From Escherichia coli (lineage in GTDB: Bacteria; Pseudomonadota; Gammaproteobacteria; Enterobacterales; Enterobacteriaceae): a stretch of DNA of 64,000 nt. Every line of letters starts with the position of its first letter. Within the stretch, counting starts at the first letter, position 1. This document shows, one piece after another, positions 10,640 to 50,395 of this stretch. The stretch lies in NCBI RefSeq assembly GCF_009931435.1, contig NZ_CP043414.1. The stretch is one strand, 5' to 3'. Under the pieces are notes generated by a model. The model was not told the DNA's origin and did no database searches. It was given only the letters and a program-made list of their open reading frames with translations. A program made the position numbers and the translations under genes.

Positions 10640-10988
<349 letters not shown>

Positions 10989-34345: not shown

Positions 34346-35261
34346 GAATCTTGACCTTTTTTGCTGTTATCGCCACTCCCTGCCGTGGAAGTCAGCTTAG
34401 AACAATGTACTCCCCCAGGACGGCGTTTTGAAGGTCTGCAGAATAAGATTTTGCCAGAGGGGAAGACTCGATTGTGCTGTTAATAACTTAATAATGGCAA
34501 AATAATGAGGTGTATATGCTTAGTAATTAATGTTATGTAGTGAATTGTTCTGATTCTTAATTGTGAGTGTGGTTTTTTTATCTGTAAGATAATTGTTTGA
34601 AAATGCCTCGTTTAAGAATTCACTAATGAATCGTGATGATGATATTTCCGCATTACGGAGAGTTTAACAGCGTGATGATTTCCGAGGTGTCGTAATGGGT
34701 GCAAGGTGTGAAACTATTGTTAAGCGGGATTAATGAATGAGGATGATGCTAATTAATTATTATTTAATATTCAAAAAGGTTTTGTTGTGCTTATTAATAA
34801 TAGAAGATTACTTTGCCTAACATAACATAACTTTGCATCAGATAATTCGCAATGACCCTTATAAATAAAAGGTTTTTGGGGTAAAATGCTCGCATAAATG
34901 ACGGATCCCTGCTCTTGATGCCGCCTCACCATTGCTGTTTGTACGTGTTCGCGTATGACCAGCGATGCTGCACGAGAGTGGAACAAGGACTCACATTTAC
35001 ATTTATACAAACACGCGCATGTCATAAATACAAAAGAGTGAGTAACTTAATAGATATGCGATTCCTGAAGATATATTCTGTGATCTACTTCAGGCATTAT
35101 AACGGAACAATGTGAGTCGCTTTTTTAGTGCAACTCATATGCATTTTTACTTTCGTCCGGGTTCCGGATGAAACTGCCAGGGAGGCACATTACAAATGGA
35201 ATTGCTTGTTTGTGTGTGCACAGCATTAACCAGCTCAGTACGAGCCGCCAGTAAGTGATAA

Positions 35262-36203
<942 letters not shown>

Positions 36204-36246
36204 TCGACGGACCATAGATAATTTCTAAGACAATAGTGTAAAAACG

Positions 36247-36287
36247 AGCCGCTGGGGGTGTTTTAAACCCCAGCGGCTTTTTTTTAG
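36247..36287 (+). terminator. Rho-independent terminator of lrhA
   Basis: agccgctggggg...ccccagcggct stem followed by 9 T. Confidence 0.8.
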
Positions 36288-36832
36288 TAAAAAGCCTTCC
36301 TCGTATCGTGCAGAACGCACAAAACTGTTCATTTTTCAATCACCAGAGATTCACGTCCCGAACGCACAAATAATCGCCTGAAAAAAATCACCTGCTACAA
36401 TGATGTTAAAAAATACGTAAATTTGTTGCTGCGTTTTTGTTATGGAATGACAAAAGCGTGTCACAGATCAAGAAAATACTCTCTTTTGGGGGGAGGAATC
36501 GACACAAATTCCTGTCAAAATAGACCCGTATTTTTTCCATTGCTTCACAACGGACACGATTCAACAACATCTAATTATCCTGGAGTCGTCAAGGATCTGG
36601 GGTGAAAGGGCATTAAATGCTAATAGTGTTGATATTATGTAAACTAATGTGAAGAAACTTTTGTTAAAGTTGACAAAAGGTTATAGAAAGGAGTAAAAGA
36701 CCACATCAATTAGCTGTATAAAAGAGTTTCTACAGTGATTGTAAGGTTTTTTTTATTCCTCCCCATGAATCGATGTGGCGTCCATCTGCCGTGAAGAGCA
36801 GTGAATCTGGCGCTACTTTTGATGAGTAAGCA

Positions 36833-37276
36833 ATGAGTATGTCAACATCCACTGAAGTCATCGCTCATCACTGGGCATTCGCTATCTTTCTTATCGTTGC
36901 CATTGGCCTGTGTTGCCTGATGCTGGTAGGCGGTTGGTTTTTAGGCGGTCGCGCACGCGCGAGGTCGAAAAACGTTCCGTTTGAATCCGGTATCGACTCG
37001 GTCGGCTCCGCCCGCTTACGCCTGTCCGCCAAGTTTTATCTGGTGGCCATGTTCTTCGTTATCTTCGACGTTGAAGCGCTGTATCTGTTCGCATGGTCAA
37101 CCTCTATCCGCGAAAGCGGCTGGGTAGGCTTTGTGGAAGCTGCAATTTTTATTTTTGTGTTACTGGCTGGTCTGGTTTATCTGGTGCGTATTGGCGCGCT
37201 GGACTGGACGCCCGCGCGTTCACGCCGCGAGCGTATGAACCCGGAAACGAACAGTATCGCTAATCGTCAACGCTAA
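36833..37276 (+). CDS. nuoA: NADH-quinone oxidoreductase subunit A
   Basis: 147-aa membrane ORF; first gene of a 13-gene nuo cluster. Confidence 0.9.
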
Positions 37277-41687: not shown

Positions 41688-41739
41688 CCGAATTTCGATT
41701 AACGCTCAGTCTCTGACTGAGAAAACTGGAAGCATGCTA

Positions 41740-48700: not shown

Positions 48701-48738
48701 GTTAAGGATTGTGGGCTTGCCCCTGGGCATATAAGAAC

Positions 48739-48775
48739 GTAGGTCGGATAAGCCGCCTTCGCGGCGCATCCGACA
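48739..48775. repeat. REP element in the nuoL-nuoM intercistronic gap
   Basis: gtaggtcggataagccgccttcgcggcgcatccgaca, a canonical REP palindrome inside the operon. Confidence 0.7.
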
Positions 48776-48865
48776 CTACAACCACAATCCGAAGAGAATT
48801 TTCTGTCGTGAGAATTCGTTGAAAATCCGGTCCTGACGGGACTTTTACAAGGAATAAAGATCGCC

Positions 48866-50395
48866 ATGTTACTACCCTGGCTAATATTAATTCCCTTTAT
48901 CGGCGGCTTCCTGTGCTGGCAGACCGAACGCTTTGGCGTCAAGGTGCCGCGCTGGATCGCGCTGATCACCATGGGATTGACGCTGGCGCTGTCGCTGCAA
49001 CTGTGGTTGCAGGGCGGTTATTCACTGACGCAATCCGCCGGAATTCCGCAGTGGCAGTCTGAATTCGACATGCCGTGGATCCCGCGTTTTGGTATCTCTA
49101 TCCATCTCGCCATTGACGGGCTATCGCTGCTGATGGTCGTGCTGACCGGTCTGCTCGGTGTGCTGGCGGTACTCTGTTCGTGGAAAGAGATCGAAAAATA
49201 TCAGGGCTTCTTCCACCTCAACCTGATGTGGATCCTGGGCGGCGTTATCGGCGTGTTCCTTGCCATCGACATGTTCCTGTTCTTCTTCTTCTGGGAAATG
49301 ATGCTGGTGCCGATGTACTTCCTGATCGCACTGTGGGGGCATAAAGCCTCTGACGGTAAAACGCGTATCACGGCGGCAACCAAGTTCTTCATTTACACCC
49401 AGGCGAGTGGTCTGGTGATGCTGATCGCCATCCTGGCGCTGGTTTTTGTTCACTACAATGCGACTGGCGTCTGGACCTTCAACTATGAAGAGCTGCTGAA
49501 TACGCCAATGTCTAACGGCGTGGAATATTTGCTGATGCTGGGCTTCTTCATCGCATTTGCGGTGAAAATGCCGGTGGTTCCGCTGCATGGCTGGCTGCCG
49601 GATGCGCACTCCCAGGCTCCGACCGCCGGTTCCGTTGACCTCGCGGGGATCTTGCTGAAAACTGCCGCTTACGGTTTGCTGCGTTTCTCCCTGCCGCTGT
49701 TCCCGAACGCGTCGGCAGAGTTTGCACCAATCGCTATGTGGCTGGGTGTTATCGGCATCTTCTACGGTGCGTGGATGGCCTTCGCCCAGACCGATATCAA
49801 ACGTCTGATCGCCTACACCTCGGTTTCCCACATGGGCTTCGTGCTGATTGCTATCTACACCGGCAGCCAGTTAGCCTACCAGGGCGCGGTCATTCAGATG
49901 ATTGCTCACGGCTTGTCGGCGGCGGGTCTGTTTATTCTCTGCGGTCAGCTTTATGAGCGTATCCATACCCGCGATATGCGCATGATGGGCGGTCTGTGGA
50001 GCAAAATGAAATGGCTGCCAGCACTGTCACTGTTCTTTGCGGTGGCAACGCTTGGGATGCCGGGCACCGGTAACTTCGTCGGCGAATTTATGATTCTGTT
50101 CGGCAGCTTCCAGGTTGTCCCGGTGATTACCGTTATCTCTACCTTTGGGCTGGTCTTTGCATCTGTTTATTCGCTGGCGATGTTGCATCGCGCTTACTTC
50201 GGTAAAGCGAAAAGCCAGATTGCCAGCCAGGAACTGCCAGGGATGTCGCTGCGTGAGCTGTTTATGATCCTGTTGCTGGTGGTGCTGCTGGTACTGCTGG
50301 GCTTCTATCCGCAGCCGATTCTGGATACCTCGCACTCCGCGATTGGCAATATCCAGCAGTGGTTTGTTAATTCCGTTACTACTACAAGGCCGTAA
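48866..50395 (+). CDS. nuoM: NADH-quinone oxidoreductase subunit M
   Basis: 509-aa antiporter-like membrane ORF. Confidence 0.9.
   Translation: MLLPWLILIPFIGGFLCWQTERFGVKVPRWIALITMGLTLALSLQLWLQGGYSLTQSAGIPQWQSEFDMPWIPRFGISIHLAIDGLSLLMVVLTGLLGVLAVLCSWKEIEKYQGFFHLNLMWILGGVIGVFLAIDMFLFFFFWEMMLVPMYFLIALWGHKASDGKTRITAATKFFIYTQASGLVMLIAILALVFVHYNATGVWTFNYEELLNTPMSNGVEYLLMLGFFIAFAVKMPVVPLHGWLPDAHSQAPTAGSVDLAGILLKTAAYGLLRFSLPLFPNASAEFAPIAMWLGVIGIFYGAWMAFAQTDIKRLIAYTSVSHMGFVLIAIYTGSQLAYQGAVIQMIAHGLSAAGLFILCGQLYERIHTRDMRMMGGLWSKMKWLPALSLFFAVATLGMPGTGNFVGEFMILFGSFQVVPVITVISTFGLVFASVYSLAMLHRAYFGKAKSQIASQELPGMSLRELFMILLLVVLLVLLGFYPQPILDTSHSAIGNIQQWFVNSVTTTRP

Follow-up and report, generated by a model that had tools for sequence, protein, structure and literature searches.

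The lrhA-nuoA interval of Escherichia coli as the nuo control region, with rigidly spaced DNA blocks and a covarying leader hairpin

We analysed a 64,000-nucleotide (nt) stretch of Escherichia coli DNA (contig NZ_CP043414.1; the window), in which positions 36204-36832 separate the lrhA open reading frame (ORF; 35265-36203) from nuoA (36833-37276), in front of the nuoA-N operon for NADH dehydrogenase I. The gene ends are the same in the RefSeq annotation of strain 2013C-4282, which is the best match to this interval among complete E. coli genomes (99.8% identity) and whose RefSeq record annotates no feature within it. K-12 MG1655 has the same arrangement, with a gap of 630 bp and an interior without annotation, and 5423 of the 5426 complete E. 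coli genomes carry the gap, always as a single chromosomal copy. Its guanine-plus-cytosine (GC) content is low (38.8%, against 52.0% for the whole window; 35.5-42% in 200-nt windows, against 50-57% in the flanking genes), and of the 47 intergenic gaps that the first 50 kb contain, with a median length of 65 bp, it is the second largest and, among those between genes on the same strand, the largest. A sequence-only reading of this DNA had described a long, AT-rich, non-coding gap before the nuo operon, and that description holds with exact coordinates. The largest gap in the first 50 kb is the divergent alaA-lrhA gap next to it (34346-35264, 919 bp), with 29-35% GC around 34500-34900; the lrhA-alaA spacer of 920 bp has been cited as a long multi-factor spacer (Shimada 2014).

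We identify the interval, with high confidence, as the nuoA-N control region. The features on which this conclusion and the arguments below draw are as follows.

36204-36832, plus strand: whole lrhA-nuoA intergenic region, 629 bp.
36246-36287, plus strand: predicted intrinsic terminator of lrhA, bidirectional in appearance; stem GAGCCGCTGGGG / CCCCAGCGGCTC, followed by T8.
36404-36446, plus strand: upstream ArcA region "nuoA2", an exact 43-nt match to the supplement of Park et al. 2013 (PMC3798270), with TGTTA-like direct repeats.
36423-36605, plus strand: 60-amino-acid (aa) ORF with a TTG start and no Shine-Dalgarno sequence, overlapping conserved DNA blocks and the distal start.
36447-36481, no strand assigned: near-invariant block B, ATGACAAAAGCGTGTCACAGATCAAGAAAATACTC.
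36488-36523, no strand assigned: G-rich box and inverted repeat GGAAT-N8-ATTCC, then TGTCAAAATAG.
36550-36568, plus strand: near-invariant block D, ACGGACACGATTCAACAAC, whose end lies 2 nt upstream of the distal start.
36570, plus strand: distal nuo transcription start, as deduced from published offsets and a published primer; 263-nt leader.
36626-36656, plus strand: downstream ArcA region "nuoA1", an exact 31-nt match to the same supplement.
36657-36716, no strand assigned: 60-nt invariant core with the near-palindrome CTTTTGTTAAAGTTGACAAAAG (36658-36679), TTGACA (36670-36675) and AGGAGTA (36689-36695).
36731-36743, plus strand: proximal promoter, with −10 element TACAGT (36731-36736) and a start at about 36743 deduced from published offsets; 90-nt leader.
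36756-36764, plus strand: pyrimidine-rich leader box UUCCUCCCC, resembling the anti-Shine-Dalgarno sequence of 16S rRNA.
36775-36816, plus strand: conserved leader hairpin, with outer helix 36775-36782/36809-36816 and inner helix CUGCC (36786-36790)/G.GCAG (36796-36801).
36817-36823, plus strand: U tract UUUU GAU, with RNA 3' ends at 36819 and 36823.
36822-36844, plus strand: RyhB pairing site, spanning the ribosome-binding site and both candidate start codons.
36833-36841, plus strand: ATG AGT ATG, with the annotated nuoA start at 36833 and another ATG in the same frame at 36839.

The interval is the same locus as the K-12 nuoA-N regulatory region studied earlier (Bongaerts et al. 1995; Wackwitz et al. 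1999; Park et al. 2013), from which it differs at 13 of 630 positions and in nothing essential. Published data could be placed on it by exact sequence matching of the ArcA sites, the primer designed from the nuo "+1" and a 61-mer from Term-seq. Park et al. reported two ArcA regions upstream of nuo by chromatin immunoprecipitation with sequencing (ChIP-seq); the upstream one lies 387-429 bp before the nuoA ATG and includes the conserved cores TGTTAAAAAA and TTGTTGC. The ArcA offsets given in that study (+57 to +77 and −178 to −146 from one start; −117 to −97 and −351 to −319 from the other) are reproduced exactly, in all four ranges, only by starts at 36570 and 36743. The distal start is supported independently by primer PBAD-nuoA-F, designed from the nuo "+1" (Chareyre 2019; PMC6497325), whose nuo (3') part begins at 36570. 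The long leader that the sequence-only reading had suspected is thus matched by published offsets, which give leaders of 263 and 90 nt. In the nACAGT hexamer of the proximal promoter, the A at position 2 and the T at position 6 are kept in most genera.

Further regulators are known from the literature. ArcA confers anaerobic repression of nuo and NarL its activation by nitrate, FNR and IHF repress weakly, and Fis stimulates in early exponential phase (PMC1905917, summarising Bongaerts 1995 and Wackwitz 1999); the title of Zhang 2004 names multiple Fis binding and an effect on the topology of nuo promoter DNA; and CpxR sites or binding at the nuo promoter have been reported (PMC8831704; bioRxiv 10.1101/2024.10.18.618624). 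Genomic systematic evolution of ligands by exponential enrichment (SELEX) placed RpoD, RpoH and RpoF holoenzyme peaks in the lrhA-nuoA spacer, and the RpoD holoenzyme data predicted a TTGACA-18-TAAAAA promoter there (Shimada 2014), whose −10-like element reads TAAAAG in the window. The complex, multi-factor promoter proposed from the sequence alone is therefore in agreement with two ArcA ChIP-seq sites that occur exactly in the window and with published action of NarL, FNR, IHF, Fis and CpxR, and existing data contradict the picture of a single start adjoining nuoA with no regulator occupancy in the 500 bp upstream. The regulators that had been proposed are those of the published list; a multi-factor nuo control region was already known, and that interpretation adds nothing new to a textbook respiratory operon integrated by ArcA, NarL, FNR, IHF, Fis, CpxR and RyhB.

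Prompted by the SELEX peaks, we also looked by eye for sigma-32 and sigma-28 promoters. The sequence CCCCATGA at 36761 resembles a sigma-32 −10 element; outside Enterobacteriaceae, however, this element is not kept and nor is a −35 element, and the reading was set aside.

Conservation of the interval was measured on 81 aligned gap sequences, those of the window and of the nuoA neighbourhoods of 80 species-level Enterobacteriaceae genomes, with identity expressed relative to the window. The gap is 623-634 bp long in most of the 80 species. Mean identity reaches 0.94 over 36448-36480 (block B), 0.95 over 36550-36568 (block D), 0.92 over 36657-36716 (the 60-nt core), 0.92 over 36756-36790 (the pyrimidine-rich box and the start of the hairpin) and 0.81 over 36487-36523 (the G-rich box and inverted repeat), compared with 0.59 at four-fold degenerate sites of nuoA and 0.32-0.50 in the spacers between the blocks. 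The spacing is rigid as well: the G-rich box and inverted repeat keeps a distance of 23 nt from block B in 80/80 sequences and its own halves lie 21 nt apart in 80/80, and other block distances are 62 nt in 76 of the 81 and 87 nt in 66 of the 81, the latter interval including about 40 nt of non-conserved sequence. Fixed block spacing across non-conserved DNA would fit a phased nucleoprotein assembly.

Beyond Enterobacteriaceae, the order of an lrhA-like LysR gene and nuoA, a gap of 637-707 bp and most of the blocks are found in Yersinia, Serratia, Erwinia, Dickeya, Pectobacterium, Mixta and Chimaeribacter; Leminorella has no LysR-gene neighbour and lacks most of the blocks. Block B is recognisable in the first five of these genera and in Mixta, and block D is kept as ACTGACACGATTTAGC in other Enterobacterales families. 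The 60-nt core is nearly unchanged in Yersinia, Serratia, Erwinia and Mixta, where its near-palindrome becomes a perfect 9+2+9 inverted repeat. An RNA hairpin formed by this palindrome was considered and rejected: changes in its arms are uncompensated (in E. sichuanensis and Pseudenterobacter), and we therefore read the palindrome and the 60-nt core as a DNA-level protein-binding sequence.

For the blocks to which no factor has been assigned, we infer possible occupants from motif likeness, and these readings are our own. Block B holds an ATCAA that is suggestive of an FNR-type half-site and a NarL-like heptamer, TACTCTC (36477-36483; TACCCCT in other families). In the core, AGGAGTA (36689-36695) is the reverse complement of the perfect NarL heptamer TACTCCT and is suggestive of a candidate NarL site. 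Within the downstream ArcA region, GTAAACTAATGTGAA (36639-36653) reads GTAAA-N5-GTGAA and resembles the CpxR consensus GTAAA-N5-GTAAA, suggestive of a candidate CpxR site. The resulting base-resolution conservation map, a by-product of this work, marks about 200 of the 629 bp as strongly constrained, among them the near-invariant blocks 36447-36481 and 36657-36716, which match no regulator site of obtainable position.

Four further observations stand apart. Within E. coli, the variability of the gap is unusual, with no more than 90-95% identity to the window in 1043 genomes. Strain AH21C062 has 35 differences from the window, 14 of which are concentrated in 36603-36659, in and around the downstream ArcA site; this cluster could be a recombination patch or could reflect relaxed or diversifying control of that site. 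Longer gaps occur in Intestinirhabdus alba (937 bp), Kosakonia oryziphila (748 bp) and a Buttiauxella agrestis assembly (747 bp), which suggests insertions into the region. Finally, a contig titled Chryseobacterium sp. 18061 (CACSKA010000019.1) carries a typical Enterobacteriaceae lrhA-nuoA locus with all conserved blocks and is nearly identical to a Citrobacter sp. 18056 contig from the same study; it is probably a contamination or a mislabelled assembly.

The 90 nt in front of nuoA contain a second kind of conserved element, in the RNA. RNAalifold recovered the leader hairpin as the consensus structure of 64 distinct sequences. In that alignment 98.7% of the hairpin cells are paired, compared with 16-51% after a shift of the 3' partners by one to three columns, and 45 cells are changed on both sides of a pair, compared with 10.2 in column shuffles, none of 500 shuffles reaching 45. 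When seven more distant genera are added, the six core pairs are unpaired in only 2 of 228 cells, both from Dickeya, and the core pairs vary across genera as GC/GU/AU, GC/AU/GU and CG/UA/UG. The stem accordingly takes the forms GUGGCG/CGCUAC in Escherichia, GUGAUG/UAUCAC in the Enterobacter group, GUAGCG/UGCUAC in Kluyvera, GUGGUG/CGCCAC in Buttiauxella, Yersinia and Serratia, and GUGGUGU/ACACCAC in Erwinia. The hairpin folds in all 38 of 38 species, with energies of −10 to −17.5 kcal/mol (−15.3 in E. coli), and is followed in most species by a U-rich tail (a median of 5 U per 8 nt, range 3-6 U). A covariance model of the hairpin gives one hit in the 64-kb window (36765-36832, 85 bits) and a single hit in front of nuoA in every one of the seven distant genera, with none in Leminorella. 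Against shuffled sequences, the folding of a 291-nt long leader gives z = −2.87 and that of a 118-nt short leader z = +0.61; the short leader folds no better than shuffles, and single-sequence energy is hence uninformative for the hairpin.

The pyrimidine-rich box upstream of the hairpin reads UCCUUCCC in other families, and its CCCAUGAA part is predicted to be unpaired with a probability above 0.9 in the fragment 36743-36823. Three further pairings were tried and rejected. GGGGAGGAAT (36490-36499) and ATTCCTCCCC (36755-36764) are perfectly complementary, but their paired fraction is the same as the shuffle mean (94.3% and 94.4%), no changes occur on both sides, and the 5' arm lies upstream of both starts. 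An anti-terminator CCACAUC (36701-36707)/GAUGUGG (36772-36778), possible in the long leader only, is unsupported: its third pair is unpaired in 12 of 35 sequences and a compensatory change is seen in Klebsiella only. An outer 4-bp extension of the hairpin (36770-36773 with 36819-36822) is unpaired in many species.

No Rfam family reaches its gathering threshold in 36204-36832, and at an E-value threshold of 1 only chance-level hits appear, all over the lrhA terminator. Elsewhere in the same operon, at the nuoF-nuoG junction (41690-41732), the window carries the nuoG RNA motif (RF01748; 50.3 bits, gathering score 33), which is likewise a small conserved enterobacterial cis hairpin; the two differ in sequence, structure and position, and the leader hairpin does not match RF01748.

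The hairpin coincides with abundant RNA 3' ends. In the Term-seq data of Adams et al. 2021 (PMC7815308), 282,730 reads from LB medium at an optical density (OD) of 0.4 mark a 3' end at K-12 position 2405086, which lies 14 nt upstream of the nuoA ATG; its Rho score is 0.82 ("No") and its intrinsic-terminator score 11.56 (threshold 3.0). A second 3' end, at 2405082 and 10 nt before the ATG, has 475,924 and 124,622 reads in other conditions. The 61-mer listed for 2405082 matches the window exactly from 36773, which puts the ends at 36819 and 36823, on and just after UUUU. After the stem, UUUU is followed by GAUG (5 U in 8 nt), on which a simple terminator scan made no call. In that study the nuoA leader ends belong to the 3' ends within 5' untranslated regions, a group that includes attenuators as well as leader-derived small RNAs, and they are classed as Rho-independent, their terminator score being high; nuo is absent from its main text, the "characterised element" column is empty, and the covariation described here is additional. 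The evolutionary covariation of a leader hairpin at known transcript ends is the new detail of this work and provides, as a second by-product, evolutionary support for an uncharacterised element coinciding with strong published 3' ends, a modest lead.

Immediately downstream lies the RyhB site. Compensatory mutations have proved the pairing of RyhB across the ribosome-binding site and start codon of nuoA (Chareyre 2019; PMC6497325), and a scan of 36570-36900 for duplexes with the RyhB core placed the best one at 36822-36844 (−18.7 kcal/mol). At the start codon itself, the first ATG (36833) is replaced by TAG or AAG in Serratia, Erwinia, Dickeya, Pectobacterium, Mixta and Chimaeribacter, and the second (36839) is kept in all genera. 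This pattern suggests that the true start of nuoA may be the second ATG and NuoA two residues shorter than annotated.

Taken together, these data lead us to the following account. The first ~85 bp of the interval belong to the 3' end of lrhA with its strong terminator-like hairpin, followed by ~115 bp of poorly conserved, AT-rich spacer. The next ~430 bp form an array of conserved blocks at fixed spacing that binds global regulators, ArcA at its two mapped places and, according to the literature, NarL, FNR, IHF, Fis and CpxR as well. This array would drive two promoters with starts at 36570 and about 36743, whose transcripts would share a 90-nt leader in which the pyrimidine-rich box precedes the hairpin with its short U tract and the RyhB site, which covers a weak ribosome-binding site. 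Transcription initiation responds to oxygen, nitrate, growth phase and envelope stress, and RyhB mediates a post-transcriptional response to iron starvation. The hairpin, whose function we infer, most likely stops or protects a fraction of the transcripts just before nuoA.

Several observations weigh against parts of this account. Both starts were deduced from secondary sources, for which a common database origin is probable. At the distal start a convincing −10 hexamer is missing (block D contains no good sigma-70 −10 hexamer, and the promoter scan was empty there), and for this reason this start could be a processing site. A consensus scan found no sigma-70-like promoter inside the gap, and a simple terminator scan likewise found nothing. 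The compensatory changes in the hairpin probably come from only about 3-4 independent lineages, which makes the covariation support solid, not overwhelming. The U tract after the hairpin has only four U, and RNA-seq coverage without bicyclomycin is 609 downstream of the 3' end and 259 upstream, a weak test, given that the 800-nt upstream window includes untranscribed DNA; with only four U and downstream coverage not lower than upstream, the leader hairpin is not an efficient terminator.

Two simpler views of the interval deserve consideration. Most of it might be neutral spacer, with only a simple promoter adjoining nuoA of any importance, as might be expected from the poor conservation (0.32-0.50) of ~115 bp at 36287-36402 and of three shorter stretches and from the failure of the consensus scan to detect a promoter. 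However, blocks up to 430 bp upstream are 0.92-0.95 identical across genera in which neutral sites are near saturation, the non-conserved stretches still keep their length, and ArcA occupies a site far upstream of the nuoA ATG, so that we give this view hardly any credence. Nor is it at all probable that the gap conceals a small protein gene. Three candidates occur in the window, namely the 60-aa ORF (the sole ORF of at least 60 aa in the gap, as the sequence-only reading had noted together with its missing Shine-Dalgarno sequence), a 54-aa ORF on the minus strand and a 9-codon upstream ORF in the leader, whose ATG at 36765 lies within a highly conserved stretch. Yet they are intact in only 1, 3 and 5 of the 81 aligned sequences, respectively, and frameshifts or stops interrupt the 60-aa ORF even in Citrobacter and Salmonella; several genera have GTG, TTA or TTT in place of the leader ATG; a Shine-Dalgarno sequence is absent from all three; and conservation is at the nucleotide level, without three-base periodicity. 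We rejected all three as not conserved, and the 60-aa ORF, judged by its conservation, is not a gene.

The function of the hairpin allows more than one explanation. It might, together with the U tract, be a working intrinsic attenuator, the 77-81-nt RNA from 36743 to 36819/36823 then being a leader-derived small RNA (sRNA). This RNA would have the shape of an Hfq-type sRNA, with a single-stranded pyrimidine-rich seed, a terminator hairpin and a U tail; its 3' ends coincide exactly with the U tract, have high reads in three conditions and are Rho-independent with a terminator score of 11.56; the stem covaries; and the CU box is conserved, with the CCCAUGAA part predicted to be unpaired. Against this stand the short run of four consecutive U and the undiminished downstream coverage, the failure to find Northern blot, Hfq-binding or target data, the lack of an annotated non-coding RNA in K-12 RefSeq and of an Rfam family, and the change of the CU box from CCUCCCC to CCUUCCC between families, which is unusual for a seed. 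We regard this explanation as unlikely, and we hold the same reserve towards its fuller form, in which a conserved attenuator would release an abundant RNA of ~80 nt whose anti-Shine-Dalgarno-like CU box UUCCUCCCC acts in trans, or in which read-through would be regulated. If true, regulated read-through would add a step to the control of Complex I that is independent of the known transcription factors and of RyhB. Somewhat less doubtful, though still tentative, is the idea that the hairpin is a structural module of the mRNA, either a dock for Hfq beside the target of RyhB or a barrier shielding the 5' fragment once RNase E has cut near the ribosome-binding site, and that the 3' ends are decay products. 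The hairpin stops 5 nt short of the RyhB duplex region, the A/U-rich UUUUGAUGAGUAAG is a plausible Hfq and RNase E site, the two closely placed 3' ends suggest trimming over a precise stop, and read-through is high; the sodB mRNA, too, reportedly uses an Hfq site beside a stem-loop for its control by RyhB. The ends are, however, abundant in LB, where RyhB is normally low, and the terminator score is far over the threshold of 3.0. The most likely outcome is a mixture, in which the structural-module or the sRNA reading is combined with a partial intrinsic attenuator.

The control region proposed here shares features with other respiratory promoters. Like nuo, cydAB, cyoABCDE, ndh and sdhCDAB have several closely spaced ArcA regions upstream of the operon, and cyo, nuo and pdhR are named together for their multiple ArcA regions by Park et al. 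2013 (PMC3798270); cyo further shares with nuo its repression by CpxR, and sdh its control by RyhB. The nuo region differs from these in being longer and in having two starts that are separated by 173 nt and enclose an ArcA site, and its block spacing, examined for nuo only, is very rigid across genera.

At the other end of the interval, the predicted lrhA terminator, on which the sequence-only reading is silent, has an RNA folding energy of −27.9 kcal/mol and was also recovered as an inverted repeat at the same site; its stem is retained with altered sequence in the alignment in Klebsiella and Kosakonia. The consensus promoter and terminator scan missed it, its loop being above the limit of the scan. 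The strength of this predicted terminator is the reason for which we count ~85 bp of the gap as lrhA 3' sequence and not as nuo control region. In K-12 Term-seq, the main 3' end of lrhA corresponds to window position 36234, 12 nt upstream of the terminator-like hairpin, and the part of the Adams 2021 Term-seq listing consulted for lrhA contains no 3' end at the T tract of the hairpin. Because the hairpin is flanked by an A tract and, on its opposite side, by a T tract, antisense transcription could end there too.

Elsewhere in the window, the nuo operon has tight junctions apart from a 230-bp gap between nuoL and nuoM (48701-48930); one study (PMC10349824) mentions a rifampicin-sensitive termination event within the nuo operon that is conserved in Klebsiella. 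In the dedD-cvpA region, three tandem matches to naRNA4 (RF02564; 79-81 bits) lie 91 nt apart at 10678-10930 and look like a repeat cluster of the repetitive extragenic palindromic (REP) or bacterial interspersed mosaic element (BIME) type.

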